From sequence record NC_047809.1: a stretch of DNA of 37,775 bases. One strand, given 5' to 3'. Position 1 is the stretch's first letter; each line of letters starts with the position of its first letter. This DNA comes from Escherichia phage vB_EcoP_K. A model generated the notes under the pieces. It saw only the letters and a program-made list of their open reading frames with translations, made no database searches and was not told the DNA's origin. A program made the translations under genes and the position numbers. Positions 11,417 through 28,544 of this stretch are shown one piece after another.

Positions 11417-11425
11417 GGAGGTGCA

Positions 11426-11903: not shown

Positions 11904-13801
11904 TGGCTAAGGCAAGAGAATCACAAGCGGAGGCTCTTGCCAGATGGGAGATGCTACAGGAGTTACAGCAGACTTTTCCGTATACGGCGGAAGGTTTGCT
12001 TCTCTTTGCAGATACAGTTATCCATAACTTGATTGCAGGCAACCCTCATCTGATTCGTATGCAGGCCGATATTTTAAAGTTTCTATTCTATGGACATAAA
12101 TATCGCCTCATCGAAGCGCCCCGTGGTATCGCTAAAACTACACTATCAGCAATCTATACTGTTTTCCGTATCATCCATGAACCCCATAAGCGTATCATGG
12201 TAGTATCCCAAAACGCCAAGCGAGCAGAGGAAATCGCAGGTTGGGTAGTTAAAATCTTCCGTGGCCTAGACTTTCTTGAGTTTATGCTACCGGACATCTA
12301 CGCAGGGGACCGTGCCTCAGTTAAGGCATTTGAGATTCATTACACCCTACGTGGCAGTGACAAGTCGCCTTCTGTGTCTTGTTACTCAATCGAAGCAGGT
12401 ATGCAGGGTGCGCGTGCAGATATCATCCTAGCAGATGACGTTGAGTCAATGCAGAATGCTCGTACAGCGGCAGGACGTGCCTTGCTTGAGGAACTGACCA
12501 AGGAGTTTGAATCTATTAACCAGTTTGGTGATATTATCTACCTTGGTACTCCTCAGAACGTAAACTCTATCTACAATAACCTACCTACTCGTGGTTACTC
12601 TGTTCGTATCTGGACTGCACGTTATCCCTCAGTGGAGCAGGAGCAATGCTATGGTGACTCCCTTGCACCTATGATTGTGCAGGATATGAAGGACAACCCA
12701 GCACTTCGCTCAGGGTATGGCTTGGATGGCAATAGTGGTGCACCTTGTGCACCTGAAATGTATGATGATGATGTGCTGATCGAGAAGGAAATCTCGCAGG
12801 GTGCGGCTAAGTTCCAGCTTCAGTTTATGCTTAACACTCGCATGATGGATGCTGACCGCTATCCACTACGCCTGAACAACCTCATCTTCACTTCATTCGG
12901 TACAGAGGAAGTCCCTGTGGTGCCTACATGGAGCAACGACTCTATTAACATCATTGGCGATGCACCGAAGTATGGCAATAAGCCTACAGACTTTATGTAT
13001 CGCCCTGTGGCCCGACCTTATGAGTGGGGTGCTGTTACCCGAAAGATTATGTATATTGACCCCGCAGGTGGCGGTAAGAACGGGGATGAAACGGGTGTGG
13101 CTATCGTCTTCCTGCACGGCACATTCATTTATGTGTATCAGTGCTTTGGTGTTCCGGGAGGATACCGCGAATCGTCCCTGAATCGCATTGTGCAGGCCGC
13201 AAAGCAGGCAGGTGTTAAAGAGGTATTCATTGAAAAGAACTTTGGTCATGGCGCGTTTGAGGCCGTTATAAAGCCATACTTTGAACGAGAGTGGCCTGTG
13301 ACTCTGGAGGAAGATTACGCCACCGGACAGAAAGAGTTGCGTATCATTGAAACACTAGAGCCACTAATGGCGGCCCACAGGCTCATCTTCAACGCAGAGA
13401 TGGTCAAGTCTGATTTTGAGTCGGTACAGCACTATCCGCTTGAACTACGCATGTCATACAGCCTTTTCAATCAAATGTCGAACATCACGATTGAGAAGAA
13501 CAGCCTACGACACGATGACCGCTTAGACGCTCTGTATGGCGCTATACGGCAATTAACTTCTCAGATAGACTATGACGAGGTTACACGGATTAATCGCCTC
13601 AGAGCGCAGGAGATGCGCGATTACATCCATGCTATGAACACACCTCACCTCCGTAGGGCAATGCTCTATGGAGATTATGGCACTGAGCGAAGAGTAACCA
13701 ACACTTCCGTGGCTATGCAGCAAAGAGTATACGGTCAGAATTACAGGAGTAAATCGGCAAGCAGAAATACACTTTCTGCAAGGATTTCAAGGACTTATTA
13801 A
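11903..13801 (+). CDS. Terminase large subunit (T7 gp19-like), 632 aa
   Basis: Start overlaps upstream stop (TGATG); ATPase region ..RLIEAPRGIAKTT.. and ..IILADDVES..; C-terminal nuclease-like region; size and synteny. Confidence 0.9.
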   Translation: MAKARESQAEALARWEMLQELQQTFPYTAEGLLLFADTVIHNLIAGNPHLIRMQADILKFLFYGHKYRLIEAPRGIAKTTLSAIYTVFRIIHEPHKRIMVVSQNAKRAEEIAGWVVKIFRGLDFLEFMLPDIYAGDRASVKAFEIHYTLRGSDKSPSVSCYSIEAGMQGARADIILADDVESMQNARTAAGRALLEELTKEFESINQFGDIIYLGTPQNVNSIYNNLPTRGYSVRIWTARYPSVEQEQCYGDSLAPMIVQDMKDNPALRSGYGLDGNSGAPCAPEMYDDDVLIEKEISQGAAKFQLQFMLNTRMMDADRYPLRLNNLIFTSFGTEEVPVVPTWSNDSINIIGDAPKYGNKPTDFMYRPVARPYEWGAVTRKIMYIDPAGGGKNGDETGVAIVFLHGTFIYVYQCFGVPGGYRESSLNRIVQAAKQAGVKEVFIEKNFGHGAFEAVIKPYFEREWPVTLEEDYATGQKELRIIETLEPLMAAHRLIFNAEMVKSDFESVQHYPLELRMSYSLFNQMSNITIEKNSLRHDDRLDALYGAIRQLTSQIDYDEVTRINRLRAQEMRDYIHAMNTPHLRRAMLYGDYGTERRVTNTSVAMQQRVYGQNYRSKSASRNTLSARISRTY

Positions 13802-13823
13802 TTACCGGACACTATAGAAGGAA
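13801..13823 (+). promoter_or_regulatory. SP6-class phage RNAP promoter
   Basis: AATTACCGGACACTATAGAAGGA; predicted +1 G at 13818; overlaps the end of the terminase gene. Confidence 0.7.
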
Positions 13824-13961
13824 GGCCCAGATAATAAGAGAAATAACAAGGATAATATAGGTTAACCTAGGTTATATAGGTATGCCTTAGTATGGGTGTA
13901 CTCCTGTACACCCTATTCCTTACTTCCTTACTATACTTACATAATAGGAGAGAGAGAGAGA

Positions 13962-14261
13962 ATGTCTAATAGTTATAGTACACAACCCCTTACAGGTAAG
14001 TCTGCTCGTAAGCAGATACAACCTGTGAGTGAAGCCCTGATACTTCCTGTAGTTTACGAGGACACTGTTGAGAAGAAAGGTGATGTTATTAATGATGCCA
14101 CCAAATCAGGTAAGCAGAAAGGGGCCATGGTGTGTCTTGATACACATGCTAACCTGGTTATTGCTATCGCAGTTGATGGCAAAGAAGATTCCAATTGGTT
14201 GACAGCTAATAAAGCGGTCACTACTATTACCCCCAGCTTAAGAGGAGAGTTACATGTCTGA
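13962..14261 (+). CDS. Hypothetical protein, paralogue 1 of a tandem pair (99 aa)
   Basis: ATG preceded by GGAGAGAGAGAGAGA; shares ..SGKQKGAMV..L.IAIA.. block with the next ORF. Confidence 0.5.
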   Translation: MSNSYSTQPLTGKSARKQIQPVSEALILPVVYEDTVEKKGDVINDATKSGKQKGAMVCLDTHANLVIAIAVDGKEDSNWLTANKAVTTITPSLRGELHV

Positions 14262-14547
14262 ATATGGAACCACAGGTACTGTTACTGGTCAGGCTTTTCG
14301 AGTAAAAACTGTACAAACCACTGCAACGGCAATCCCTTTGCCTATTGTTGCTGAAGCAGACCTTAAGAAGAAAGATCATCCTATCAACATTAAACACCTC
14401 TCTGGTAAACAGAAAGGCGCCATGGTTGCTGTAGAGAAAGCAGACCAATCCTTGTACATCGCTATTGCACGTGGGAGTGAACCCACCGACAAGTGGGATG
14501 CAACTACTATGAAGTCGGACCCTGTAACACCTGCGGCTGAATTGTAA
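14254..14547 (+). CDS. Hypothetical protein, paralogue 2 of a tandem pair (97 aa)
   Basis: RBS AGAGGAG; shares ..K.INIKHLSGKQKGAMVAVEKADQSLYIAIA.. with the preceding ORF; 8-nt overlap with it. Confidence 0.5.
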   Translation: MSEYGTTGTVTGQAFRVKTVQTTATAIPLPIVAEADLKKKDHPINIKHLSGKQKGAMVAVEKADQSLYIAIARGSEPTDKWDATTMKSDPVTPAAEL

Positions 14548-14561
14548 AGACGAGGTCAATA

Positions 14562-14906
14562 ATGCTTAACAAACACTTCAAGCGCCGTGAGTTCGCTTGC
14601 CGTTGTGGGTGCGGTACATCCACAGTAGATGCTGAGTTACTACAGGTAGTCACAGATGTACGTGAGCACTTTGGTGCTCCTGTAGTTATTACTTCTGGAC
14701 ACCGCTGTGCTAAGCACAATGCTAATGTGGGAGGTGCTAAGAACTCCATGCATCTTACTGGTAAGGCTGCTGACATTAAGGTACAAGGTATTACACCTTA
14801 CCGTGTGTGGTCCTATCTAACAGCACGCTACCCCAATAAATATGGCATTGGGTCTTATCCTAATTTCACCCACATTGATGTAAGAGAGGGATGTGCACGA
14901 TGGTAA
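14562..14906 (+). CDS. Endolysin, zinc metallopeptidase of the M15/LAS type (probable L-alanyl-D-glutamate or D-Ala-D-Ala peptidase)
   Basis: 114 aa with ..SGHRCAKHNANVGGAKNSMHLTGKAADIKV.. and ..FTHIDVRE.. (H-x6-D and distal H zinc ligands typical of LAS peptidases, as in T5 endolysin); followed by membrane protein and spanins. Confidence 0.75.
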   Translation: MLNKHFKRREFACRCGCGTSTVDAELLQVVTDVREHFGAPVVITSGHRCAKHNANVGGAKNSMHLTGKAADIKVQGITPYRVWSYLTARYPNKYGIGSYPNFTHIDVREGCARW

Positions 14907-15014
14907 GATGTATTGAATGGTGCGAGCGCATGGTTGCTCAAGCTGCCGAGGGTGGCAACTATGATGACTGGAAGGACTACTCGGACTTATTAGCTCAATG
15001 GAAAGGGAGATGTA

Positions 15015-15164
15015 ATGAAAAAGCTGTTTAAGTCTAAGAAAGTGGTAGGTGCACTGGTTGCACTGGTGATTGCTCTTGTTTCTGTAGGTCTTGGCGTAGA
15101 CCTAGGTGAAGGTACTGAAGGTTCCGTCACTGACGTGGTATGCCAAGTAATCACCTGTGAATAA
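15015..15164 (+). CDS. Small membrane protein (49 aa), possible second holin/antiholin or lysis accessory protein
   Basis: AAGGGAGA RBS; MKKLFKSKKVVGALVALVIALVSVGLGVDLG.. single predicted TM helix; position between endolysin and spanins. Confidence 0.4.
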   Translation: MKKLFKSKKVVGALVALVIALVSVGLGVDLGEGTEGSVTDVVCQVITCE

Positions 15165-15378
15165 GGTGCTAGAGGTGGTAGCAGGTCTTATTGGCCTGCT
15201 GCTTGCCGCTAAGAAGAAGAAGGAAGAGAAGGAGGCACAAAGTGAGGCGAATCATGCTAGCGACAATCCTGCTGATTGGTTCGCTGATCACTTCAGGGTG
15301 TCAGACGGCGTTACCAGAGAATCCAAAGGTGAAGCCTCTGAAGCCGACGCTTACGGCAGTCTACGAGGTGGACGATAA
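15157..15378 (+). CDS. Putative i-spanin-like protein (Rz-position), unusually short (67-73 aa); start codon uncertain (GTG)
   Basis: N-terminal hydrophobic segment VLEVVAGLIGLLLAA followed by charged region; contains the start of the o-spanin ORF in another frame. Confidence 0.3.
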   Translation: MNKVLEVVAGLIGLLLAAKKKKEEKEAQSEANHASDNPADWFADHFRVSDGVTRESKGEASEADAYGSLRGGR

Positions 15379-15451
15379 AGTCTGCTTCAGTAAGCCTGAC
15401 GCTACAAAATTAGGTATGTACATTCTCTCGCTAGAACGCGGGTATAATTAA
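15254..15451 (+). CDS. o-spanin (Rz1-like outer-membrane lipoprotein), 65 aa
   Basis: GAGG 6 nt upstream; signal peptide MLATILLIGSLITSGC with lipobox-like ITSG|C; short proline-rich mature part (LPENPKVKPLKPT); starts inside and extends beyond the i-spanin candidate (overlapped architecture). Confidence 0.5.
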   Translation: MLATILLIGSLITSGCQTALPENPKVKPLKPTLTAVYEVDDKVCFSKPDATKLGMYILSLERGYN

Positions 15452-15480
15452 TACATAGTTTATGTATCAGTGTCTTACGA

Positions 15481-15503
15481 TTTACTGGACACTATAGAAG
15501 AGA
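15481..15503 (+). promoter_or_regulatory. SP6-class phage RNAP promoter (tailspike operon)
   Basis: ATTTACTGGACACTATAGAAGAG; predicted +1 G at 15498. Confidence 0.75.
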
Positions 15504-15581
15504 TAAGATAGTGCCGTTCTTTTGAGCGGCCTATTACTAGCCAATCTTCATAGGGAGGGTTGGGAAGTAATAGGAGAGTAT

Positions 15582-15917
15582 ATGGCTAAGTTAACTAAAC
15601 CCAAGACAACTGGCTTACTACATAGAGATACTGTACTAGCTACATTATTGGATAATTTACTATCTAAAAGGCGTGTTACATTTGAAGGTGTAGTTCCAAG
15701 TGAAGATACTAAAATTGAGATAGAAGTACCTGCAACAGGAGATTTAGATTCTTCGTGGGCATCACTTGTATCATTAAGTACACCTACACTTTGTACAGCT
15801 TGGATTACTAAAGTGTCAGATACTAGATTAGAAGTACATGTATTCCATACAGCACAAGTTGAAATAGACATAGATGTAGATGTTTACATTCTAGGTAAAC
15901 ACATTGTCAGTGCGTAA
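15582..15917 (+). CDS. 111-aa ORF upstream of endosialidase; probable remnant/adaptor-binding N-terminal module of a second tailspike
   Basis: AGGAG RBS; from recollection, phage K1E carries a 111-aa ORF at this position similar to the N-terminus of the K1-5 K5-lyase tailspike; not verifiable here. Confidence 0.5.
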   Translation: MAKLTKPKTTGLLHRDTVLATLLDNLLSKRRVTFEGVVPSEDTKIEIEVPATGDLDSSWASLVSLSTPTLCTAWITKVSDTRLEVHVFHTAQVEIDIDVDVYILGKHIVSA

Positions 15918-15984
15918 GCACTGCTTTTCGCGCAACTTTTCTTAAAGGTTATCATGATGGTAGCCTTTCAGAAAAGGAGGTTAC

Positions 15985-18420
15985 ATGATTCAAAGACTAG
16001 GTTCTTCATTAGTTAAATTCAAGAGTAAAATAGCAGGTGCAATCTGGCGTAACTTGGATGACAAGCTCACCGAGGTTGTATCGCTTAAAGATTTTGGAGC
16101 CAAAGGTGATGGTAAGACAAACGACCAAGATGCAGTAAATGCAGCGATGGCTTCAGGTAAGAGAATTGACGGTGCTGGTGCTACTTACAAAGTATCATCT
16201 TTACCTGATATGGAGCGATTCTATAACACCCGCTTCGTATGGGAACGTTTAGCAGGTCAACCTCTTTACTATGTGAGTAAAGGTTTTATCAATGGTGAAC
16301 TCTATAAAATCACGGATAACCCTTATTACAATGCTTGGCCTCAAGACAAAGCGTTTGTATATGAGAACGTGATATATGCACCTTACATGGGTAGCGACCG
16401 TCATGGTGTTAGTCGTCTGCATGTATCATGGGTTAAGTCTGGTGACGATGGTCAAACATGGTCTACTCCAGAGTGGTTAACTGATCTGCATCCAGATTAC
16501 CCTACAGTGAACTATCATTGTATGAGTATGGGTGTATGTCGCAACCGTCTGTTTGCCATGATTGAAACACGTACTTTAGCCAAGAACGCACTAACCAATT
16601 GTGCATTGTGGGATCGCCCTATGTCTCGTAGTCTGCATCTTACTGGTGGTATCACTAAGGCTGCAAATCAGAGATATGCAACAATCCATGTACCTGATCA
16701 CGGACTCTTCGTTGGTGATTTTGTTAACTTCTCTAACTCTGCGGTAACAGGTGTATCTGGTGATATGAAGGTTGCAACAGTAATAGATAAGGACAACTTC
16801 ACGGTTCTTACACCTAACCAGCAGACTTCAGATTTGAATAACGCTGGAAAGAGTTGGCACATGGGTACTTCTTTCCATAAATCTCCTTGGCGTAAGACAG
16901 ATCTTGGTCTAATCCCTCGTGTCACAGAGGTGCATAGCTTTGCTACTATTGATAACAATGGCTTTGTTATGGGCTATCATCAAGGTGATGTAGCTCCACG
17001 AGAAGTTGGGCTTTTCTACTTCCCTGATGCTTTCAATAGCCCATCTAATTATGTTCGTCGTCAGATACCATCTGAGTATGAACCAGATGCGGCAGAGCCA
17101 TGCATCAAGTACTATGACGGTGTATTGTACCTTATCACTCGTGGTACTTGTGGCGATCGACTAGGAAGCTCTCTGCATCGTAGTAGAGATATAGGTCAAA
17201 CTTGGGAGTCACTAAGATTTCCACATAATGTTCATCATACTACCTTACCTTTTGCTAAAGTAGGAGATGACCTTATTATGTTTGGTTCAGAACGTGCAGA
17301 AAATGAATGGGAAGCAGGTGCACCAGATGATCGTTACAAGGCATCTTATCCTCGTACCTTCTATGCACGATTGAATGTAAACAAGTGGAATGCAGATGAC
17401 ATTGAATGGGTTAACATCACAGACCAAATCTATCAGGGTGACATTGTGAACTCTAGTGTAGGTGTAGGTTCGGTAGTAGTTAAAGACAGCTACATTTACT
17501 ATATCTTTGGTGGAGAAAACCATTTCAACCCAATGACTTATGGTGACAACAAAGATAAAGACCCATTTAAAGGTCATGGACACCCCACTGATATATACTG
17601 CTATAAGATGCAGATTGCAAATGACAATCGTGTATCTCGTAAGTTTACATATGGTGCAACTCCGGGTCAGGCTATACCTACCTTCATGGGTACTGATGGT
17701 ATTCGTACTATTCCTGCTCCACTTCACTTATCAGGAGAGGTAGTTGCCGCAGATATGACTGTCGAACACCTTACCCTGAAGGCAAGTACAAGTGCTAATA
17801 TTCGCTCAGAGATGCTGATGGAAGGTGAATATGGGTTCATTGGTAAGACTATACCAACGGATAACCCAACTGCCCAACGTGTCATCATCTCTGGTGGAGG
17901 GGGTACAGCAGCAGATACCGGTGCGCAAATTACCTTACATGGAGCAGGTTCTAGTACTTCTAGACGCGCAGTATATAATGCCAATGAGCACTTGTTCCAA
18001 AGCGGGGCTATCATGCCATACAATGATAACGTGTATCCTGCTGGCGGCCCTCGTAATAGATTCACTACTATCCATCTTACAAGTGACCCTATTATTACGT
18101 CTGATGCCACTCATAAGTATGGATCACAAGGTATTGATGAGGGTGTACTAAAGGCATGGGGCAAGGTTGCCTTCAAGCAGTACAAGTTGATTGGAGAGAT
18201 GTCTAGTGGTGTGCATCACACTCACTTTGGTGTATTGGCACAAGACATTGTAGCTGCTTTTGCATCCGAAGGGTTAGATGCAATCGACTTCGGCATTGTC
18301 TCCTTCGAAGAAGGTCAGTTTGGTGTTAGATATAGTGAAATCTTAATCTTGGAGGCTGCTTATACTCGTTATCGTTTAGACAAGTTAGAGGAGATGTATG
18401 CCACTAATAAAACCAGTTAA
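15985..18420 (+). CDS. Endosialidase (endo-N-acetylneuraminidase) tailspike with C-terminal intramolecular chaperone domain, 811 aa
   Basis: AAGGAGG RBS; sialidase Asp-boxes SGDDGQTWS and SRDIGQTWES; C-terminal ..GVHHTHFGVLAQDIV..FGVRYSEILILEAAYTRYRLDKLEE.. typical of the autocleaved chaperone domain of phage endosialidases; 811 aa is the size I recall for the K1E enzyme. Confidence 0.9.
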   Translation: MIQRLGSSLVKFKSKIAGAIWRNLDDKLTEVVSLKDFGAKGDGKTNDQDAVNAAMASGKRIDGAGATYKVSSLPDMERFYNTRFVWERLAGQPLYYVSKGFINGELYKITDNPYYNAWPQDKAFVYENVIYAPYMGSDRHGVSRLHVSWVKSGDDGQTWSTPEWLTDLHPDYPTVNYHCMSMGVCRNRLFAMIETRTLAKNALTNCALWDRPMSRSLHLTGGITKAANQRYATIHVPDHGLFVGDFVNFSNSAVTGVSGDMKVATVIDKDNFTVLTPNQQTSDLNNAGKSWHMGTSFHKSPWRKTDLGLIPRVTEVHSFATIDNNGFVMGYHQGDVAPREVGLFYFPDAFNSPSNYVRRQIPSEYEPDAAEPCIKYYDGVLYLITRGTCGDRLGSSLHRSRDIGQTWESLRFPHNVHHTTLPFAKVGDDLIMFGSERAENEWEAGAPDDRYKASYPRTFYARLNVNKWNADDIEWVNITDQIYQGDIVNSSVGVGSVVVKDSYIYYIFGGENHFNPMTYGDNKDKDPFKGHGHPTDIYCYKMQIANDNRVSRKFTYGATPGQAIPTFMGTDGIRTIPAPLHLSGEVVAADMTVEHLTLKASTSANIRSEMLMEGEYGFIGKTIPTDNPTAQRVIISGGGGTAADTGAQITLHGAGSSTSRRAVYNANEHLFQSGAIMPYNDNVYPAGGPRNRFTTIHLTSDPIITSDATHKYGSQGIDEGVLKAWGKVAFKQYKLIGEMSSGVHHTHFGVLAQDIVAAFASEGLDAIDFGIVSFEEGQFGVRYSEILILEAAYTRYRLDKLEEMYATNKTS

Positions 18421-18553
18421 GCAAGCTGCTGTACTCCAGAACACAGAAGAGCTTATTCAATCAGGACGTGACCCTAAGCAGGCATATGCCATTGCCAAGG
18501 ATGTTCAACGTAGAGTATTGAGTAAGACCTCTGCATCGTCTGCGAAGCAGTAA
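18398..18553 (+). CDS. Possible small ORF (51 aa) overlapping the 3' end of the endosialidase gene
   Basis: ATG with GAGGAG upstream; MPLIKPVKQAAVLQNTEELIQSGRDPKQAYAIAKDVQRRVLSKTSASSAKQ; no homology assessable. Confidence 0.25.
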   Translation: MPLIKPVKQAAVLQNTEELIQSGRDPKQAYAIAKDVQRRVLSKTSASSAKQ

Positions 18554-18613
18554 CACTTAGTCTGCACAAGGGCTGGCTTAGGTTGGCCCTTAGTGCAACC
18601 CAAAGGAGGTTTG

Positions 18614-18769
18614 ATGATTTGGATTCATACTTATGGAGTCGGCCCATTCAAACGTAAGGTACTCAGGAAGATACATGACACTGAAGAGTCTGCACTGGCT
18701 AGCCAGAAGGTTCTTGGTGGAACTGTACAGGCTTACCTGAAGCAACCCAATGGATTCGACTTAGTGTAA
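18614..18769 (+). CDS. Possible small ORF (51 aa)
   Basis: AAAGGAGG RBS 5 nt upstream of ATG; MIWIHTYGVGPFKRKVLRKIHDTEESALASQKVLGGTVQAYLKQPNGFDLV. Confidence 0.35.
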   Translation: MIWIHTYGVGPFKRKVLRKIHDTEESALASQKVLGGTVQAYLKQPNGFDLV

Positions 18770-18829
18770 TCAAATGAGGTAACATGAAAGACCTACTGTT
18801 AGCCCTCTTATGCACAGCATGTATCTATG

Positions 18830-18887
18830 GCCCACACCCTCATGCCCTGTCAAACGCTCAGGAATGGCCCTAAAACGGCCTGTGTAA
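18830..18887. repeat. 58-bp direct repeat, copy 1
   Basis: GCCCACACCCTCATGCCCTGTCAAACGCTCAGGAATGGCCCTAAAACGGCCTGTGTAA; identical copy at 19266-19323. Confidence 0.9.
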
Positions 18888-19025
18888 CAATAGATACAGA
18901 GCTAGGATAGGCTAGATTGGCTAGGTTTAGGGTGTTCCTCCTACTGCATCTTATCACTATTACCTACTCTCAGCGGTCTACCGACCGCGACCTAATTGCA
19001 TCTTATAGCTTTAGCTATGCAATCA

Positions 19026-19160
19026 CTAAGGTCTGGCACTAAGACTAACTAAGGTACACTACTAAGTTGATACTAAGCTAAGCACTAAGGCTTTAACTAA
19101 GGCAACCCACTAAGGCTAACCTAAGCCATCCATCAAGGAATAACCTAAGGTACACGTGAG
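19026..19160. repeat. Array of about 11 degenerate heptamers (A/C)CTAAG(G), genome-terminus-like
   Basis: CACTAAGG, AACTAAGG, TACTAAG.. recur at short irregular spacing; analogous to the CCTAAAG-type repeats of T7 genome ends; four more copies at 19325-19420. Confidence 0.7.
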
Positions 19161-19183
19161 CGAGTGAACGGAGCGCAAGCGGA

Positions 19184-19239
19184 GTGAGGAGCAGTGAGTG
19201 AGGAGCAGTGAGTGAGGAGCAGTGAGTGAGGAGCAGTGA
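19184..19239. repeat. Tandem repeat, 4 x 14 bp (GTGAGGAGCAGTGA) plus partial copies
   Basis: Exact tandem copies visible in GGAGTGAGGAGCAGTGAGTGAGGAGCAGTGAGTGAGGAGCAGTGAGTGAGGAGCAGTGAGTGAAGCG. Confidence 0.9.
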
Positions 19240-19265
19240 GTGAAGCGTAGCGAAACGAACAGATA

Positions 19266-19323
19266 GCCCACACCCTCATGCCCTGTCAAACGCTCAGGAA
19301 TGGCCCTAAAACGGCCTGTGTAA
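19266..19323. repeat. 58-bp direct repeat, copy 2
   Basis: Identical to 18830-18887; copies are 436 bp apart and bracket the heptamer and tandem-repeat region. Confidence 0.9.
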
Positions 19324-19583
19324 GCCCTAAGCGGTTGCACTAAGGCAATCACCTTGTCCAATACTAAGGCGCGCCCTAGCGCTTCCTAGGTGTTCTCCTT
19401 GTGCAGCCACTAAGAGCAGACCTCGGCAAGCCCTAGGCCACCCGTCGAGCTTCCTGCGGCAGCAGGTTGAAGACGGACCAGCCCAGCCCAATTCCCAAGC
19501 CAACCGCAGCGCGTTTAAATAGTCACGGGCAAGAGTGCTACATAGTGCAACGTAAAGTATTAGGCTCAATATGGGTCACGTGT

Positions 19584-19706
19584 ATGATGCCTATTGGCTA
19601 TACTGATACAGAGGCTATCTTCTGCACCGAAAGGGATGCAAAGAAGTTTATCTCTAAGCGTAGAAAAGCTGACTCTTACCAACCCAGAACTATTAAGGTG
19701 AACTAA
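19584..19706 (+). CDS. Short ORF reading into the primase start (open from 19467; start ambiguous), possible 5'-truncated gene remnant
   Basis: Frame open for 79 codons ending TAATG overlap with primase ATG; first in-frame ATG pair at 19584 lacks a clear RBS. Confidence 0.25.
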   Translation: MMPIGYTDTEAIFCTERDAKKFISKRRKADSYQPRTIKVN

Positions 19707-21694
19707 TGGCTATTATTAATAACATCCCGTGCCCTGCCTGCCAGAAGAATGGACACGATAAATCCGGCAATCATCTCATGATATTTGATGATGGTGCTGG
19801 CTATTGTAACCGTGGTCATTTCCACGATAACGGCAAGCCTTACTATCATAAGCCAGATGGTGGCATCGAGATCACCGAGTTGCCTATTACTGGCAATATC
19901 AAATATACACCTTCTCAATTCAAAGAGATGGAGAAGGAAGGGAAGATAAGCGACCCTAAGTTACGCGCCATCGCACTTGGTGGCATGCGTATGAAAGACC
20001 GATGGGAGGTCATGAATGAGCAAGAAAGGGCAGACCAAGAAGCAGAGTGGAAACTTGATGTTGAATGGTTCCTCACGCTTAAGCGTAAGAATCTTGTTTC
20101 CCGACACATTCGCGGCGACATTTGCGCATTGTATGATGTACGTGTCGGACACGATGAAGAGGGTAGAGTCTCACGGCATTACTATCCACGCTTCGAGAAA
20201 GGTGAACTAGTAGGCGCTAAGTGTCGCACATTACCTAAAGACTTTAAGTTTGGTCATTTAGGTAAACTCTTTGGTATGCAAGATCTTTTCGGGATGAATA
20301 CTTTGTCTCACGTGTTAGACAAGGGAAGACGAAAGGATCACTTGCTCATTGTCGGCGGCGAACTGGATGCACTAGCAGCACAGCAAATGCTCCTTGATTC
20401 TGCCAAGGGTACTAAGTGGGAAGGCCAGCCTTACCATGTATGGTCTGTCAATAAAGGTGAGTCTTGCCTTGAAGAGATAGTACAGAACCGTGAACACATC
20501 GCCCAATTTAAGAAGATTATATGGGGTTTTGATGGAGATGAGGTAGGGCAGAAGCAGAATCAGCAAGCGGCTCGCCTGTTTCCTGGCAAATCCTATATCC
20601 TTGAATACCCTTCTGGTTGCAAAGATGCTAACAAGGCATTGATGGCTGGCAAGGCTAAAGAGTTTGTTGATGCTTGGTTTAATGCCAAGTCATCTGATGA
20701 AGTCTTTGGTAGCCATATTAAATCTATCGCATCTCAAAGGGATAAGCTCAAGGCTGCACGTCCAGAGCAAGGGCTATCATGGCCTTGGCCTAAGCTGAAC
20801 AAGGTAACGCTAGGTATTCGTAAGAACCAGCTTATCATTGTAGGTGCAGGCTCTGGTGTAGGTAAGACTGAGTTCCTCCGCGAAGTGGTTAAACATCTTA
20901 TTGAAGAACATGGTGAATCTGTAGGCATCATTTCTACAGAAGACCCGATGGTCAAGGTGTCCCGTGCTTTTATCGGTAAGTGGATTGATAAGCGCATTGA
21001 GTTACCGCCAACCAATGACCCGAAAGAAGACGGATACCGTGAGGTGTTCGACTATACTGAGGAAGAGGCTAATGCCGCCATTGATTATGTAGCTGATACA
21101 GGGAAGCTGTTTGTAGCTGACCTAGAGGGTGACTATTCTATGGAGAAGGTAGAGCAAACTTGCCTAGAGTTTGAGGCTATGGGCATTTCTAATATCATCA
21201 TTGATAACTTAACGGGGATTAAATTAGATGAGCGTGCTTTTGGTGGGAAGGTTGGTGCACTTGATGAATGCGTCAAACGAATTGGTACTATCAAAGATCG
21301 ACATGCGGTTACGATTTTCCTTGTCTCTCACCTTACACGTCCTCCGGCAAACCGTACCCAACACGAAGAAGGTGGCGAAGTTATCCTTTCTGACTTCCGA
21401 GGCTCAGGCGCTATCGGATTCTGGGCATCTTACGCCTTGGGGATTGAGCGTAATACAAGAGCTGAAACGCTTGATGAAAGGACTACCACGTACATCTCAT
21501 GTGTCAAAGACCGCGACCAAGGTATCTACACTGGAACCAAGGTCATGCTTAAGGGTGACATTCAAACCGGACGTTTAATGGAACCACAAGCTCGTACTAA
21601 GTCATTTGATACAGGTGAAGCAAGGCAACAAGAAGTACCTGATTTACCAGACACTATAGAAGGGACTAACTTCGATGAAGAAAGTGAGTTCTGA
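19706..21694 (+). CDS. DNA primase-helicase (T7 gp4-like), 662 aa
   Basis: N-terminal zinc-binding CPACQKNGHD...CNRGHFH; helicase Walker A GAGSGVGKTEF; acidic C-terminus ending ..FDEESEF as in T7 gp4. Confidence 0.9.
   Translation: MAIINNIPCPACQKNGHDKSGNHLMIFDDGAGYCNRGHFHDNGKPYYHKPDGGIEITELPITGNIKYTPSQFKEMEKEGKISDPKLRAIALGGMRMKDRWEVMNEQERADQEAEWKLDVEWFLTLKRKNLVSRHIRGDICALYDVRVGHDEEGRVSRHYYPRFEKGELVGAKCRTLPKDFKFGHLGKLFGMQDLFGMNTLSHVLDKGRRKDHLLIVGGELDALAAQQMLLDSAKGTKWEGQPYHVWSVNKGESCLEEIVQNREHIAQFKKIIWGFDGDEVGQKQNQQAARLFPGKSYILEYPSGCKDANKALMAGKAKEFVDAWFNAKSSDEVFGSHIKSIASQRDKLKAARPEQGLSWPWPKLNKVTLGIRKNQLIIVGAGSGVGKTEFLREVVKHLIEEHGESVGIISTEDPMVKVSRAFIGKWIDKRIELPPTNDPKEDGYREVFDYTEEEANAAIDYVADTGKLFVADLEGDYSMEKVEQTCLEFEAMGISNIIIDNLTGIKLDERAFGGKVGALDECVKRIGTIKDRHAVTIFLVSHLTRPPANRTQHEEGGEVILSDFRGSGAIGFWASYALGIERNTRAETLDERTTTYISCVKDRDQGIYTGTKVMLKGDIQTGRLMEPQARTKSFDTGEARQQEVPDLPDTIEGTNFDEESEF
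21642..21664 (+). promoter_or_regulatory. SP6-class phage RNAP promoter (within 3' end of primase-helicase gene)
   Basis: ATTTACCAGACACTATAGAAGGG; two mismatches to the consensus upstream half; +1 G at 21659. Confidence 0.6.
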
Positions 21695-21710
21695 TTAGTG
21701 TATTTATCGG

Positions 21711-21734
21711 GCTTGTCTCACATGTGAGACAGGC
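21711..21734 (+). promoter_or_regulatory. Conserved palindromic stem-loop, copy 2 (GCTTGTCTCACATGTGAGACAGGC)
   Basis: 17 nt after stop at 21694; same core as 7096, 22888, 27950. Confidence 0.45.
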
Positions 21735-21771
21735 TCTTATTAAGTATATATTAAATAACTGGAGATTGATT

Positions 21772-22455
21772 ATGTATAAATTAGTATTGAATGCAGGTGA
21801 TTATGTTCGTAACATCAATGAAGCCTCACGTCGTTATCGTTGCCGTGGTGTAGTGGATCGTATAAGTGAGAACATGTATCATGTAGAATATGAGGATGGT
21901 ATTAAGGCTTCTTACCACAAGAAAACAGCACATAAATATCTTGAAAAGATTGTAGAGATAAACAATCAATGTAAGTGCATACATGATGAGGTTTGCGATA
22001 AATGTGCTCGCCAGATGCTTAAGAATTTCCTAGCTCCTCTTTATTATGGTGCTGGTCCTCAAACACTAGCAGAGTACATGGCAGAAAAGAAAACCACACT
22101 CAAGAAAGAGCGTCGCAATGTAATCACTGGTAAGACTCAAAGTGAAATGATTAAGCAATGTGGCACTGCATTAGGTGTTACACAGTTCAATACTCGTGCA
22201 TTGGGTAAATCCACAGGGCAAGCTATGGTGAAAATTGGTGAAGCTATGATGCACCCAAATGTGCCTGTGCGAATCTTGGATGTTGACCATGCAATCACAG
22301 AGCATGGCACACCACGGCGTGTAGCTAATAATCATTTCGCCGACACTATAGAAGGTATTATTCGTAAGCAAGGGTTGAAGGGTCTTCACATCTTAAATGG
22401 TGAAGAATTACTGTACCTACCTATCGTTACTGAAGAAACCTACGTGAATATCTAA
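21772..22455 (+). CDS. Hypothetical protein, 227 aa
   Basis: GGAG 7 nt upstream of ATG; coding-like composition; contains Cys/His cluster CKCIHDEVCDKCARQ; no recognisable family. Confidence 0.5.
   Translation: MYKLVLNAGDYVRNINEASRRYRCRGVVDRISENMYHVEYEDGIKASYHKKTAHKYLEKIVEINNQCKCIHDEVCDKCARQMLKNFLAPLYYGAGPQTLAEYMAEKKTTLKKERRNVITGKTQSEMIKQCGTALGVTQFNTRALGKSTGQAMVKIGEAMMHPNVPVRILDVDHAITEHGTPRRVANNHFADTIEGIIRKQGLKGLHILNGEELLYLPIVTEETYVNI
22334..22356 (+). promoter_or_regulatory. SP6-class phage RNAP promoter-like site (within gene 21772-22455)
   Basis: ATTTCGCCGACACTATAGAAGGT; conserved core GACACTATAGAAG, three mismatches upstream. Confidence 0.5.
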
Positions 22456-22485
22456 GGAGTTAATCATGACTAAGGTATTAATTAT

Positions 22486-22683
22486 ATGCGTGGACCTCAT
22501 AAATGCTATGCAGTTGTAGCACCAGATGGTGTCAAGACATATGGTACTTCAAAGGGGTTTGCATTAATAGGTGCCAGTCTTAGTGCAAGTTTTCAGATGG
22601 AACTTTTCGGTCATTGGACTGAAAAAGAGTTCCGTGAGGAGTTTAATGTAATCGGCAGCTTTATGGTGAAACATGCAAAATAA
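22486..22683 (+). CDS. Hypothetical small protein, 65 aa
   Basis: ORF with coding-like composition; weak RBS; a 17-codon ORF with a strong RBS (AAGGAG, ATG 22467) lies just upstream. Confidence 0.35.
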   Translation: MRGPHKCYAVVAPDGVKTYGTSKGFALIGASLSASFQMELFGHWTEKEFREEFNVIGSFMVKHAK

Positions 22684-22882
22684 ACACAGTCTTAAGATGT
22701 TTGATGGTCACGAAGACCTGCAAGCACAAATTACTAACCAAGCCTTCCTGTTTGCACAGTTAACTATGGCTGAAGCAAAGAAGAATAGCCTGACGCGCGA
22801 GCAAGTTATCAAAGAGGCAACTTGGGAGCCACACCAAGGCAAATACATGGGCCAGAAATTAACTGTAACACGCAGTCGATAA
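22673..22882 (+). CDS. Hypothetical small protein, 69 aa
   Basis: ORF overlapping the previous stop; followed directly by palindromic stem-loop copy 3. Confidence 0.35.
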   Translation: MQNKHSLKMFDGHEDLQAQITNQAFLFAQLTMAEAKKNSLTREQVIKEATWEPHQGKYMGQKLTVTRSR

Positions 22883-22887
22883 GTAAA

Positions 22888-22915
22888 GGGTTGTCTCACA
22901 CGTGAGACAGCCTTT
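22888..22915 (+). promoter_or_regulatory. Conserved palindromic stem-loop, copy 3 (GGGTTGTCTCACACGTGAGACAGCC) followed by TTT
   Basis: 6 nt after stop at 22882; stem extends to about 11 bp. Confidence 0.45.
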
Positions 22916-23033
22916 CATCATATTGATTGGAGGTGCATTATGCCACGTGATTATGATTCTGATTGGGATTTCCAAGATTCAATGAACTCAAAACCTGAAC
23001 GTTCAGATGACTACTACGAAACAGAGGCAATGT

Positions 23034-23252
23034 ATGAAAGCTATTAAAGTCAGTAAGGTTTGCTCTTGCGGTAAAGGTTATCGCAGTCGTATTGATGGTA
23101 AGTGTGGGCATTGCAGGTCTAAGAAAGAGGCTGCTTTGTTTGATAAGTACCACAATGAATTAGCATATAACTATCCTCATCTAACACCTAATTCTTTATT
23201 AGGACTTGGTTATAGGGTTAAATACTTTGGAGCAATCTATGAAATCAATTGA
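23034..23252 (+). CDS. Small zinc-ribbon-like protein, 72 aa
   Basis: CSCGKGY...CGHCRSKK (CxC..CxxC); GAGG upstream; overlaps DNAP start by 14 nt. Confidence 0.4.
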   Translation: MKAIKVSKVCSCGKGYRSRIDGKCGHCRSKKEAALFDKYHNELAYNYPHLTPNSLLGLGYRVKYFGAIYEIN

Positions 23253-25785
23253 TTGGAAGAAGGAAGCAGAAGGCCGCATCTTAGTGATGGATTCTGAGGC
23301 TAAAGGCCTGCTGGATGCTATCCGATATGGCCACCGCGAAGATGTGCACATCATTTGCTGCATGGATTTGCTTACTACAGAGGAGTTCCTCTTCTTTGAC
23401 CCATACGAGATGCGTGACCCTGAAGCAAGAGAACGCCTAAAAGAATGGGAAGGCCATCAAGATGGAACATTGGTTGACGGTGTTAACTTCCTTAAGCACT
23501 GCGAAGCCATCGTCTCACAGAACTTCCTAGGGTACGACGGCCTTCTATTTGAGAAAGCATTCCCTGATATCTGGAAAGGCTTTAACTATACCGAGAGACG
23601 CGGCAAGGGCAGACTCCGCGCTGACCTGTGTCCGGTACGCGTCATGGATACGCTGGTCATGAGTCGCCTGTTAAACCCCGATAGACGCCTCCCTCCGCAA
23701 GCATACGCCAAAGGCATGGGTAACGTAGCCCCTCACTCAATTGAGGCGCACGGCATTCGTATAGGCCGTTATAAGCCGGAGAACGAGGATTGGTCTAAAC
23801 TAACTGACCACATGGTACATCGTGTACGCGAGGACGTGGCGATAGGCCGTGACCTATTCCTCTGGCTATTTAACGGAGAATGGACGGAGCACAAACGCCG
23901 TGGCGTGAATAAACGCACTGGCCTAGGTATTGAGACAGCCTTCCACATGGAGTCCATTGTGGCGCTGGAGATGAGCCGTCAGGCCGAGCGTGGATTCCGT
24001 CTGGATATAGATAAAGCATTAGCACGATGCGAGGAATTGGACGCTAAGATTGATGAGACAGTCGCAGCGTTCCGTCCGCACATGCCTATGCGTATCAAGT
24101 CTAAACCTTTTAAACCGGAAGAAAAGAATGAAGTATGCCAACGCGCAAATGAGTATGGAGCTAGCAACAATATACCTACTGTCCTTGACCCCTCTCACTT
24201 TCTTCACGCAGAGAGACGAGGAGATCGCAAGACAGTATGGAGTGTCACTACTAAGTCTGGTGATTGGTCGGCTAGCGTCAAGAAAGACTTTCCTCACCTT
24301 AGAGGAAACCGTAATGACACGCCAAGCATCAAGTGGATTGGCGCTTACTCGCCTGTTACTTTCGAAGAGATTCCCTTGGGTAACAGGGATACAGTTAAGC
24401 AAGTGCTCTATGATTATGGATGGAAAGGTGTTGAATTTAACGATACCGAGCAAGCGCATCTCGATGAGCATGGCGTATTACCCAAGCCTTGGAGTGGGAA
24501 GATAAATGAAAAGTCCCTTACTTTATGGCAAGAGAGAGCCGCACGTGAAGGTAAAACAGTCCCTGATTGGTGCTTGGGTATCGCTGCATGGTACATACTC
24601 GTATCCCGTCGTGGTCAGATCCTCAACCGTGGTGACGTTGAAGCCTTCGACCAGAAGGGGGTGTGGCCTTCGCAAGCTGGTATACGAAAGTGTCGCGGCC
24701 TTGTACCTGTAGCATTTAACAAGGAGTTAGGAATCAATGCGCAGCAATACTACGAAAGGTACGGATGCTGGCCTACGTCAGACAAGGATGACGGAGAATG
24801 GCGTGTGCCAGCTATTGCTATTAGTATTGGAACTTCTACGTTCCGTATGCGTCATCGTAACGTGGTTAATATTCCTGCCCGTGGTTTGTATCCTTTACGT
24901 GATTTATTCATAGCCGGTAAAGGTAAGCTAATCCTTGGTTGTGATGGTGCTGGTCTTGAACTACGTGTACTGTCTCACTTCATGAATGACCCTGAATATC
25001 AAGATATTGTACTGCATGGTGACATTCACACCCATAATCAAATGAAGGCTGGTCTTCCTAAGCGTGACATGGCGAAGACATTTATATATGCCTTCCTATA
25101 TGGGTCTGGTATAGCTAACCTTGCAGCAGTATGTGGTGTTACTGAGGAAGAAATGGAGGAAGTTGTGGCAAGATTTGAGGTTGAACTACCATCTCTTGCA
25201 CGTCTTCGTGAGAATGTTATCGCACAAGGTAACAAGTTTGGCTACCTACAAGCACCTGATGGTCATTGGGGTCGCATCCGTATGTCTGGTGGTGAACTTA
25301 AAGAGCACACTATGCTTAACGTACTACTCCAGATGACTGGTTCTCTGTGTATGAAATACGCATTGGTCAGAGCGTTTGCAGTGATGCGCAAGGAAGGTGT
25401 GGCCTTAGATAGCATGGGAAACCCTTGCGGTATAGCTAACGTGCACGATGAAATCCAGATGGAAGTCCCTGAAGATGAGGTCTTGTATCTCAACTACGAC
25501 TTGCCTTTCACCTTAGAAGGGTTCGAAACAGAGAAGGCTGCTGTGAAAGCAGTGTTCGATGCAGAGGAGAAACGTGTTCATGTGGATTCTGAAGGACGTA
25601 TGTGGTCTGCTGCAAATCTCGTTAGTGTTGATGCTGATGCTGGTGTACTTCATTGCCAGCGTCGTTATCACCGTGCAGGGCATATCATTGCCGATGCAAT
25701 GACTTGGGCAGGTCAGTACCTGAAGATGCGTTGTCCGATGGCAGGTGAGTATAAGATTGGTGCAAGTTGGAAGGAAACACACTGA
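23239..25785 (+). CDS. DNA polymerase, family A (T7 gp5-like), 848 aa
   Basis: GGAG 6 nt upstream; 3'-5' exonuclease-type motif ILVMDSEAKGL; polymerase motif B ..RDMAKTFIYAFLYGSG.. and motif C ..VHDEIQMEV.. Confidence 0.9.
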   Translation: MKSIDWKKEAEGRILVMDSEAKGLLDAIRYGHREDVHIICCMDLLTTEEFLFFDPYEMRDPEARERLKEWEGHQDGTLVDGVNFLKHCEAIVSQNFLGYDGLLFEKAFPDIWKGFNYTERRGKGRLRADLCPVRVMDTLVMSRLLNPDRRLPPQAYAKGMGNVAPHSIEAHGIRIGRYKPENEDWSKLTDHMVHRVREDVAIGRDLFLWLFNGEWTEHKRRGVNKRTGLGIETAFHMESIVALEMSRQAERGFRLDIDKALARCEELDAKIDETVAAFRPHMPMRIKSKPFKPEEKNEVCQRANEYGASNNIPTVLDPSHFLHAERRGDRKTVWSVTTKSGDWSASVKKDFPHLRGNRNDTPSIKWIGAYSPVTFEEIPLGNRDTVKQVLYDYGWKGVEFNDTEQAHLDEHGVLPKPWSGKINEKSLTLWQERAAREGKTVPDWCLGIAAWYILVSRRGQILNRGDVEAFDQKGVWPSQAGIRKCRGLVPVAFNKELGINAQQYYERYGCWPTSDKDDGEWRVPAIAISIGTSTFRMRHRNVVNIPARGLYPLRDLFIAGKGKLILGCDGAGLELRVLSHFMNDPEYQDIVLHGDIHTHNQMKAGLPKRDMAKTFIYAFLYGSGIANLAAVCGVTEEEMEEVVARFEVELPSLARLRENVIAQGNKFGYLQAPDGHWGRIRMSGGELKEHTMLNVLLQMTGSLCMKYALVRAFAVMRKEGVALDSMGNPCGIANVHDEIQMEVPEDEVLYLNYDLPFTLEGFETEKAAVKAVFDAEEKRVHVDSEGRMWSAANLVSVDADAGVLHCQRRYHRAGHIIADAMTWAGQYLKMRCPMAGEYKIGASWKETH

Positions 25786-25901
25786 TGGACAGGTTTGATA
25801 TTGTTTGCCTATTCTCCACCTTCTTTCTTATATTCCTTATGCTTGCTTGCTATGGAAGTATGCGATTAGATATACCTGATGAAGAGGAGGGTTACGATTG
25901 A
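25785..25901 (+). CDS. Possible small membrane protein, 38 aa
   Basis: ATG overlapping DNAP stop (TGATG); hydrophobic core CLFSTFFLIFLMLACYG. Confidence 0.3.
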   Translation: MDRFDIVCLFSTFFLIFLMLACYGSMRLDIPDEEEGYD

Positions 25902-25999
25902 TGCAGGCATCTTTTATTATTCTTGGAGTCATATTATTTATGGTAGTATTCTGGGCTTTCTCTGGCATTGACCCAGATTGTGATGGTAACTACGACTGA
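25901..25999 (+). CDS. Possible small membrane protein, 32 aa
   Basis: ATG overlapping preceding stop; hydrophobic FIILGVILFMVVFWAF. Confidence 0.3.
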   Translation: MQASFIILGVILFMVVFWAFSGIDPDCDGNYD

Positions 26000-26008
26000 G
26001 TTATACTC

Positions 26009-26030
26009 AAGGTCACTTACGAGTGGCCTT
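26009..26030 (+). terminator. Stem-loop (8 bp, one G-U) after the small ORFs; weak terminator candidate
   Basis: AAGGTCAC TTACGA GTGGCCTT followed by T-poor tail (TATGAA); so low confidence. Confidence 0.3.
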
Positions 26031-26067
26031 TATGAATAACTTATTCCTACTTATTTAGTCTAACATG

Positions 26068-26090
26068 ATTTACTGGACACTATAGAAGGA
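26068..26090 (+). promoter_or_regulatory. SP6-class phage RNAP promoter
   Basis: ATTTACTGGACACTATAGAAGGA; +1 G at 26085. Confidence 0.75.
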
Positions 26091-26154
26091 AAGCCTAGGT
26101 AATCTAGGTTTATAAGGTAGTATAGGTAATTAAATAAATATAGGAGATATAAAT

Positions 26155-26532
26155 ATGTCTATGGTAACTACTCTGGTATTCGTGGCTCAATACTTTCGTG
26201 GTCTTGCTAATAAGTTCAAGTCCAAGGCTATCAAAGCTATTGAGGCTCGCATCGAAGCAGTACAGGCAGAGCAAGTTAAAGTTGAAGAACATCGTAGTTC
26301 TCAAATGATTGACTGTCATAACCGCTACTATGCATCTCGTGATGAACTAAATGCACGTCAAGTCAAAGAGGTAGAAGATATGCTGGCACGTCACCAGCAA
26401 GAGCGTGACAGCCTGAAAGCTGAATTTGAAGAGAACAAGGCATCAATTGCTCTTGTAAATCAAGCTGCATCTGACAGCCTGAAGAAAGAGATTGTTATGC
26501 TGGAAATAGAACTGGACAACTTGACTAAATAA
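26155..26532 (+). CDS. Hypothetical coiled-coil protein, 125 aa
   Basis: Strong AT-rich leader with GGAG; heptad-like charged sequence (..IEARIEAVQAEQVKVEE.., ..EIVMLEIELDNLTK). Confidence 0.5.
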   Translation: MSMVTTLVFVAQYFRGLANKFKSKAIKAIEARIEAVQAEQVKVEEHRSSQMIDCHNRYYASRDELNARQVKEVEDMLARHQQERDSLKAEFEENKASIALVNQAASDSLKKEIVMLEIELDNLTK

Positions 26533-26538
26533 GGAGTT

Positions 26539-26838: not shown

Positions 26839-26859
26839 TTACTGGACACTATAGAACAA
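26837..26859 (+). promoter_or_regulatory. SP6-class phage RNAP promoter (variant AGAACAA downstream)
   Basis: AATTACTGGACACTATAGAACAA; +1 G at 26854. Confidence 0.7.
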
Positions 26860-26915
26860 TAGGTCGGCTTAGTTCGGCCTATGATTGTGTAGTGTAACAA
26901 TAGGAGACTAAATAA

Positions 26916-27722: not shown

Positions 27723-27731
27723 GGAGAAAGG

Positions 27732-27970: not shown

Positions 27971-27982
27971 TCGGTGTCCGGT

Positions 27983-28518: not shown

Positions 28519-28544
28519 GCGTAATAGTTATTGGAGAATGAATT

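Follow-up and report, generated by a model that had tools for sequence, protein, structure and literature searches.

Between the endosialidase tailspike gene and the primase/helicase gene of Escherichia phage vB_EcoP_K, the deposited genome carries two small open reading frames, a segment of terminal DNA that is inverted and partly duplicated, and a gene 8.5 that lacks its 5' end. The stretch analysed here, referred to as the window, is the entire deposited vB_EcoP_K genome of 37,775 bp. The anatomy of the locus was derived from pairwise BLAST against vB_EcoP_B and against both ends of K1E, and its parts are joined at three junctions, J1 to J3:

15985-18420, + strand: endosialidase tailspike (K1E gp47 homologue; AQN31909.1), the last large gene before the right end, with Pfam endosialidase domains
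18398-18553, + strand: small open reading frame of 51 aa (AQN31910.1), homologue of vB_EcoP_B gp35 (annotated '48')
18615-18769, + strand: small open reading frame, homologue of vB_EcoP_B gp34, in normal right-end context
18828-18887, - strand: incomplete second copy of the terminal repeat, inverted and limited to its final ~60 nt (K1E 45251 to 45192, repeat positions 288 to 229)
18830-18835: J1, right-end unique region joined to the inverted extreme right end, with the 6-nt microhomology GCCCAC
18887-18888: J2, repeat position 229 joined to K1E 622, without clear microhomology
18888-19263, - strand: inverted left unique region adjoining the terminal repeat (K1E 622 to 289, 334 bp)
19264-19513, - strand: inverted terminal repeat, positions 288 to 40 (BLAST against K1E)
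19513-19514: J3, inverted repeat position 40 joined to K1E 7213, with 1-nt microhomology
19515-19706, + strand: 5'-truncated gene 8.5 (residues 10-72 of K1E gp8.5, by tblastn)
19706-21694, + strand: primase/helicase (K1E gp9), intact (full-length tblastn match)

Phage K, isolated from sewage, belongs to the 1982 therapy collection of Smith and Huggins and was sequenced by Baig et al. (2017; PMC5582158). The genome record is KY295897 (Table S1 of that paper, PMC5582158), and the length of 38,025 bp given in Table 1 corresponds to 37,775 bp plus a 250-bp terminal repeat (PMC5582158). NCBI taxonomy places the phage in the species Vectrevirus kay, and in the literature library searched no paper other than Baig et al. 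(2017) was found to name vB_EcoP_K. Megablast against phage records gave 98.9% identity to vB_EcoP_B for positions 1-18800 and 98.5% to vB_EcoP_C and R for positions 19706-37775, and both halves were 95.7-95.9% identical to K1E; more than 95% of each half was covered in these comparisons. The sequence flanking the rearranged segment is 99.7-99.9% identical to vB_EcoP_B. Identity and synteny with K1E extend over the replication, structural and lysis modules, and on this comparison the window can be assigned to a K1E-like Vectrevirus of the SP6 group. The first-pass annotation had described a rotated replicon some 7 kb shorter than the SP6 group. Both descriptions hold: the end and the start of the window are contiguous in the relatives, inside the capsid gene, and the window is 7,476 bp shorter than K1E. 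Of ten window proteins looked up by exact sequence, six were found, each as an entry of vB_EcoP_K; the K-specific proteins occurred in the NCBI record only and were absent from the Logan and ENA assemblies.

Positions 18301-18835 are normal right-end sequence, 99.8% identical to vB_EcoP_B (L001 9817-9283), which in vB_EcoP_B coordinates ends 112 nt before the right terminal repeat. The 686 bp at 18828-19513 are the reverse complement of K1E left-end material. The terminal repeat, 288 nt long in K1E, is not present here as a complete direct repeat: there is a single inverted copy that lacks positions 1-39, plus the 60-nt partial copy at 18828-18887, which duplicates 19264-19323. Lying between these copies, the left unique region (18888-19263) carries clustered short repeats of CTAAGG, and at 19182-19243 it has 4.4 tandem copies of the 14-nt unit GAGTGAGGAGCAGT. 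The window lacks the right-end spacer as well as repeat positions 1-39, which include the mature left end and the palindrome CCCCATATGGGG. The boundary between right spacer and repeat is absent from the record and that between repeat and left unique region is present; repeat positions 40-288 and the adjacent left region are retained but inverted, and the left-end cleavage context is missing. The orientation of the terminal segment relative to the genes is canonical in K1E, vB_EcoP_B, C, D, R and mutPK1A2, and opposite in vB_EcoP_K. At the downstream edge of the inverted segment, 16 codons of the inverted repeat are fused in frame to the truncated gene 8.5 (open reading frame 19467-19706). The region that had been annotated as a terminus-like repeat is thus turned around compared with its usual orientation.

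All of 18421-19705 can be aligned to DNA of K1E-like phages, with no filler and no foreign DNA. The inverted segment is 92.8% identical to vB_EcoP_B and about 84% identical to C, D and R. We considered that it might be carry-over from a sibling library, and rejected this because it is just 84-93% identical to these phages; on the same grounds the segment is K's own sequence.

At J1 the breakpoint is 2 nt away from the mature right end of the genome (K1E base 45251). Within the final 1 kb of the right-end region its GCCCAC motif occurs just once, and the + strand of the whole window has no more than five copies. At the J2 site the closest relative, vB_EcoP_B, has a C-T20 tract and an 87-bp tandem duplication, where the other relatives have just CTTTCC. 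J3 cuts the conserved gene 8.5 open reading frame at codon 9, with codon 10 onward retained, and falls 1-2 nt from a 12-nt palindrome, of which K1E has only 17 perfect examples. The three junctions are illegitimate and their sites are not random; they look like products of template switching, or of illegitimate end joining, at places where the DNA has a special structure. A restriction or recombineering scar at J3 (GCGCG joined to TTTAAATAG) was considered and rejected, as the TTTAAA is native to K1E and nothing foreign is present. Searches with 26-30-nt k-mers found J3 absent from IMG/VR, JGI metagenomes and GTDB genomes, J1 absent from IMG/VR and JGI metagenomes, and J2 absent from IMG/VR, the sole collection scanned for it. 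Neither the complete genomes of E. coli nor the plasmids of PLSDB contained a match to the junction region.

Between the two K1E positions brought into this arrangement at J2 and J3, K1E 623-7212 (6,590 bp) is missing from the window. This DNA contains genes 1-6, including ocr, the RNA polymerase (RNAP) gene 7, gene 8 and the 5' end of gene 8.5. When the K1E RNAP (875 aa) was compared with the whole window by tblastn, only noise was returned (E > 3), and K1E genes 1 to 8 gave zero matches; the gene 8.5 match begins at residue 10, and the primase is matched over its full length. In Pfam scans, the large open reading frames of the window gave nozzle, lysozyme, terminase, endosialidase, DnaB/Toprim, DNA_pol_A and portal domains; none of them gave an RNA_pol domain. 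The claim that no RNAP is encoded in the window is thereby confirmed, and the vB_EcoP_K record lacks the hallmark of the Autographivirales, an own single-subunit RNA polymerase. The first-pass annotation had also raised a genuine deletion, and suggested aligning the region to K1E to find its breakpoint. That alignment places the breakpoint at 19513/19514 (J3), where repeat position 40 meets K1E 7213. The loss of K1E 623-7212 is real in the record, but it is not a simple deletion, since a segment is inverted and part-duplicated and three junctions are involved.

The absence of a DNA-dependent RNA polymerase from phage K, together with that of the 1.1 protein, Ocr and a homing endonuclease, was already stated in 2017 (PMC5582158), and Table S2 of that paper lists the RNAP and early genes without a K counterpart (PMC5582158). 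The missing RNAP has thus been known since 2017, and it is the junction anatomy that is new here.

The promoters served by this polymerase type were searched for with the core GACACTATAGAA, allowing at most one mismatch, and the chance level was taken from shuffled sequence. The window contains 10 sites, all on the + strand, against a mean of 0.28 and a maximum of 3 in the shuffles. The first-pass annotation had reported at least ten phage promoters, and each was recovered where it had been placed. Their flanks agree with the K1E/SP6 consensus ATTTACTGGACACTATAGAAG, and they lie upstream of middle and late genes, paired one to one with promoters of K1E:

11695-11717, + strand: phage promoter (SP6/K1E-type), equivalent to K1E 37190
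13800-13822, + strand: phage promoter (SP6/K1E-type), equivalent to K1E 40041
15480-15502, + strand: phage promoter (SP6/K1E-type), equivalent to K1E 41725
21642-21664, + strand: phage promoter (SP6/K1E-type), equivalent to K1E 9350
22334-22356, + strand: phage promoter (SP6/K1E-type), equivalent to K1E 10198
26068-26090, + strand: phage promoter (SP6/K1E-type), equivalent to K1E 13933
26837-26859, + strand: phage promoter (SP6/K1E-type), equivalent to K1E 14702
27983-28005, + strand: phage promoter (SP6/K1E-type), equivalent to K1E 15940
31579-31601, + strand: phage promoter (SP6/K1E-type), equivalent to K1E 19105
36717-36739, + strand: phage promoter (SP6/K1E-type) upstream of the capsid gene, equivalent to K1E 24439

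K1E has 11 such sites. All ten that lie downstream of 7213 are kept in the window, nine of them identical to K1E over 30 nt, and the eleventh, at K1E 6832, falls in the missing DNA. Sigma-70-like early promoter candidates at K1E 671-743 fall in the deleted part as well, and no sigma-70-like promoter was found on either strand of window positions 18300-19800. For this reason we rejected the idea that the inverted segment holds a cryptic host-type promoter directed towards the primase gene. Since the candidates at K1E 671-743 are deleted and the junction region offers no substitute, the genome in the record would have no means of starting transcription by itself.

Could the arrangement have been introduced when the genome was finished? 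The record ends fall inside the major capsid gene, and there exactly one base (C) is missing in comparison with both vB_EcoP_B and C, so that the capsid reading frame is frameshifted if the record is circularised. This fits the published observation that the K capsid CDS aligns over just 87% of its length (PMC5582158). Phage K was sequenced on the MiSeq from a Nextera XT library, as ENA sample ERS1810218, with 2x250 reads at ~260x coverage, and assembled with SPAdes, and a single contig was reported (PMC5582158); in finishing, the ends were joined with Ns, which were then filled from mapped reads (PMC5582158). As the record ends, with their one-base loss, lie in the capsid gene, the SPAdes contig was opened and closed there, and J1 to J3 are therefore internal to the assembled contig. 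They are presumably supported by the 2x250 reads at about 260x. For the same reason we rejected the idea that J2 (18887/18888) is a butt-join made by the authors with a k-mer-sized overlap of 58 nt. An artificial join at the terminus had been among the explanations offered by the first-pass annotation: a finishing join does exist, but it is located in the capsid gene at the record ends and not at the terminus. Given its location, a mis-assembly at 18.8-19.5 kb, though possible, becomes less easy to explain.

We give about half of our belief to the reading that the vB_EcoP_K record is a recent defective genome which needs RNAP in trans and was dominant in the sequenced stock. A trans-acting RNAP is gone while ten cis-acting promoters are intact, which is the pattern of a defective, helper-dependent genome. 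The helper-dependent phage proposed in the first-pass annotation is in this respect the reading we favour, except that the terminus is not intact, being inverted. Because the promoters are undecayed and identity to RNAP-encoding relatives is 96-99.9%, the loss of the RNAP region appears to be very recent. The structure of the junctions, which suggests template switching or illegitimate joining, argues that the loss was an accident and not an evolved RNAP-independent lifestyle.

The ancestor of vB_EcoP_K would have been laid out like K1E. The right-end spacer, repeat positions 1-39 and K1E 623-7212 would then have been lost in a single complex rearrangement of recent date, or in a small number of them close together. 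With K1E 623-7212 went the host-type early promoters, one phage promoter and codons 1-9 of gene 8.5, and the lost DNA would have been replaced by 686 bp of the phage's own left end in inverted orientation. J1 is the kind of junction expected if a 3' end primed on a short complementary stretch some 400 nt upstream, and J2 and J3 may have arisen at a homopolymer-tract site and at a palindrome, respectively. The resulting genome would keep all replication, structural and lysis genes and the ten downstream promoters, and yet be unable to start its own transcription, so that expression would occur only with a K1E-type RNA polymerase supplied in trans. The most plausible supplier would be a sibling phage of full length, propagated together with it in the one historic, unpurified stock. 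The deposited contig would then be an interfering-type genome dominating the virion DNA, and the plaque-forming units would be those of a minority helper. What the sequence itself shows is the identity of the record, the missing genes, the inverted segment, the sequences at the junctions and the conserved promoters. An origin in vivo, the dominance in the stock, the existence of the helper and the mode of packaging are what we infer in this scenario.

The published procedure has features on both sides. Phage K lysates were grown in broth overnight from stock at an MOI of 0.1, no plaque purification is described, and DNA was taken from ultracentrifuged particles (PMC5582158). Broth amplification without described plaque purification counts in favour of a real defective genome, as does the consideration that an early region present at full depth should not be lost by SPAdes. 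Against it count the single contig and the normal plaque and one-step growth data for K (PMC5582158), with a latent period of 6-8 min and a burst of 30 (PMC5582158); no helper sequence was reported (PMC5582158). Packaging is a further difficulty. A genome with an inverted repeat that lacks positions 1-39 and the spacer has no intact left-end cleavage context. Judged by maturation in the T7 group, its cutting and packaging by a T7-type terminase would be hard to account for, which also counts against a defective genome.

The growth data can be read in another way, namely that phage K in reality possesses the usual early region, RNAP included, and that the deposited contig lost it and gained the inverted terminal piece in SPAdes or while being finished by hand. 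Chimeric reads from the physical ends, breakage at a homopolymer or the discarding of a second contig are conceivable causes. We regard this assembly or finishing artefact, the main rival reading, as possible, though on the doubtful side. Plaque formation and the short cycle reported (PMC5582158) are beyond what an RNAP-less SP6-type genome should manage, and the record has no intact terminal-repeat boundary for left-end formation. Finishing was crude enough to leave a demonstrable error, the base lost at the record ends with its capsid frameshift; the sibling record vB_EcoP_B has odd T20 tracts and a 70-nt near-duplicate exactly at the J2 position, and J1 falls at a physical end of the DNA, a place where library preparation could generate artefacts. 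However, the three junctions are inside the contig and not at its ends, and with 2x250 reads at ~260x the canonical paths through the 6.6-kb early region should beat rare chimeras. Four other K1E-like phages went through the same pipeline and were assembled canonically. The microhomology at J1 and the lack of filler or foreign sequence point to a molecular event and not to a cut-and-paste error, and snap-back Nextera end fragments, which would carry the same adaptor at both ends, should sequence inefficiently.

Implicit in the 2017 paper is an autonomous K1E-like phage that lacks RNAP and is transcribed wholly by the host RNA polymerase, and the plaque, adsorption and one-step growth data published there are attributed to the vB_EcoP_K genome (PMC5582158). 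The latent period and cycle of K are the longest among the K1E-like phages, which the authors link to the missing RNAP (PMC5582158). We nevertheless hold this reading to be very improbable. Ten promoters are intact, nine of them unchanged from K1E over 30 nt, and elsewhere the genome shares 96-99% identity with relatives that encode RNAP; for both reasons we see no adaptation to host transcription. The junction region has no sigma-70-like promoter on either strand, the ancestral early promoters are deleted, and the junctions truncate gene 8.5 and the terminal repeat, as is typical of an accident and not of an evolved module boundary. T7-like phages without RNAP do exist in nature, such as roseophage SIO1 and vibriophage VpV262. 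Gene 1 deletion mutants of T7 depend on host-supplied RNAP. That the deposited phage K itself forms plaques on wild-type K1 E. coli, with host transcription bypassing the promoters and packaging proceeding without the canonical repeat orientation, is what the published growth data say if taken at face value; it strikes us as still harder to believe. A deliberately engineered RNAP-deleted phage, for instance one made for an RNAP-expressing host, would account for a deletion that takes RNAP and the early genes and spares all downstream genes. It is barely conceivable for a sewage isolate of the 1982 Smith and Huggins collection that has no markers, restriction scars or foreign sequence, all of 18421-19705 being K1E-like phage DNA, and whose junctions run through gene 8.5 and through the terminal repeat, with an inverted segment that no design would include. 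The engineered genome suggested in the first-pass annotation is accordingly unsupported. What is left of our belief goes to mixtures of these readings, for example unpackaged intermediates.

Set beside known systems, vB_EcoP_K resembles K1E and the other Vectrevirus phages (K1-5, vB_EcoP_B/C/D/R, mutPK1A2) in its 96-99% identity and its full synteny from gene 8.5/primase to the endosialidase gene, and it shares with them the same ten promoters, the terminal repeat sequence and the adjoining short-repeat region. Unlike them, it lacks K1E 623-7212, repeat positions 1-39 and the right-end spacer, and its terminal segment is inverted and part-duplicated. T7 gene 1 (RNAP) deletion mutants are propagated on RNAP-supplying hosts. 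Like these mutants, vB_EcoP_K has a complete promoter network, keeps its late genes and has no polymerase, so that expression needs RNAP in trans; the mutants, however, were constructed in the laboratory or selected as simple deletions, and their terminal repeats are intact, whereas vB_EcoP_K comes from a natural or historic stock, was grown on a wild-type K1 strain and has a rearranged terminus. SIO1 and VpV262 likewise combine T7-like replication and structural modules with the absence of a phage RNAP. They are ancient lineages and have no phage-RNAP promoter network, in contrast to vB_EcoP_K, which keeps undecayed K1E promoters and is only 1-4% from RNAP-encoding relatives. With defective interfering and helper-dependent variants, vB_EcoP_K has in common the loss of essential trans-acting genes, the retention of most cis elements, a shorter genome and an apparent dominance in a stock passaged without plaque purification; it differs from defective interfering genomes in that only 15% is deleted, the packaging signals look damaged and the helper is a presumed one. 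To our knowledge, defective interfering genomes are not well documented in the T7/SP6 group, a further point against the defective-genome reading.

To the published absence of RNAP we add the anatomy of the junctions, the finishing error in the capsid gene and a warning on the RefSeq exemplar. The vB_EcoP_K record is the reference genome of the ICTV/NCBI species Vectrevirus kay, and it stands without the hallmark gene in a group that is defined by self-transcription. The record is most likely defective or mis-assembled rather than the genome of a phage living without a polymerase, and a phage living without its own polymerase is very unlikely here; the RefSeq species exemplar is thus probably a defective or mis-assembled genome. 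Baig et al. (2017) used the absence of RNAP from K to argue that the presence of RNAP predicts therapeutic performance (PMC5582158). If the genome is defective or mis-assembled, this argument is undermined, the RefSeq entry needs flagging, and comparative studies should not count vB_EcoP_K as a natural loss of RNAP. If the rearranged genome did dominate the therapeutic stock, the T7/SP6 group would gain one of the few documented interfering genomes that depend on a helper, and quality control in phage therapy would have reason for caution.

Several features of the window and of the corresponding stretch of its closest relative, vB_EcoP_B, lie at or near the junctions of the rearrangement, or bear on how the phage K genome has been described:

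Window 11900-13801: large terminase, a single unbroken ORF of 633 aa
Window 18784-18873: 29-aa ORF (MKDLLLALLCTACIYGP...), spanning J1, the junction of right-end unique DNA with the inverted extreme right end
Window 19026-19369: cluster of CTAAGG motifs (eight in 344 nt), adjoining the terminal repeat
Window 19182-19243: perfect 14-nt tandem repeat (GAGTGAGGAGCAGT x4.4), adjoining the terminal repeat
Window about 36790-37775 and 1-217: major capsid gene, split by the record ends
vB_EcoP_B record 21929-22085 (L001 8430-8586): homopolymer runs and a near-duplicate

The small ORF across J1 shares its start with a hydrophobic 30-aa peptide of vB_EcoP_B (…GPLLVYLYLAGIILV), which is unannotated in that record. 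J1 therefore also exchanges the C-terminus of a candidate small membrane peptide. The terminal short-repeat array is inverted in the window. It is similar to the short repeats bordering the terminal repeat of T7.

J2 is the junction where terminal repeat position 229 meets K1E 622. The vB_EcoP_B record contains two homopolymer runs of 20 nt (A20 on the L001 strand) and a 70-nt near-duplicate with a spacing of 87 nt. These coincide exactly with the position equivalent to J2 (K1E 622/623); other relatives have CTTTCC alone at this site. Either slippage has a real hot spot here, or the runs and the near-duplicate are a scar of the assembly.

The large terminase is interrupted by a homing endonuclease in K1E (genes 40A/40.5/40B) and in vB_EcoP_C, D and R, but not in phage K, which accounts for the endonuclease described as "missing" from this phage (Baig et al., 2017; PMC5582158). 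Its absence has no connection with the early-region loss. The window ends (37775|1) fall within the major capsid gene, and exactly one base, a C, is absent there compared to vB_EcoP_B and vB_EcoP_C, so that circularising the sequence would shift the capsid reading frame. The lost base almost certainly reflects an error in finishing and accounts for the capsid alignment length of 87% given for phage K in Table S2 (PMC5582158).

Judged by its sequence, the "UNVERIFIED" record OR594181.1 (L006, vB_EcoM_SHAK7704) is a Vectrevirus, sharing 95.7% identity with 18 kb of the window. It carries the label Kayfunavirus/Studiervirinae and a myovirus name, and its feature table is out of register with the genes.

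Identity is highest to vB_EcoP_B (98.9-99.9%) in the structural half (window 1-18800), at the right end and over the first 1.5 kb onward from 19513, while the replication half as a whole (window 19706-37775) is nearest to vB_EcoP_C, R and D (98.5%). This mosaic relatedness suggests recombination among phages of this collection's lineage.
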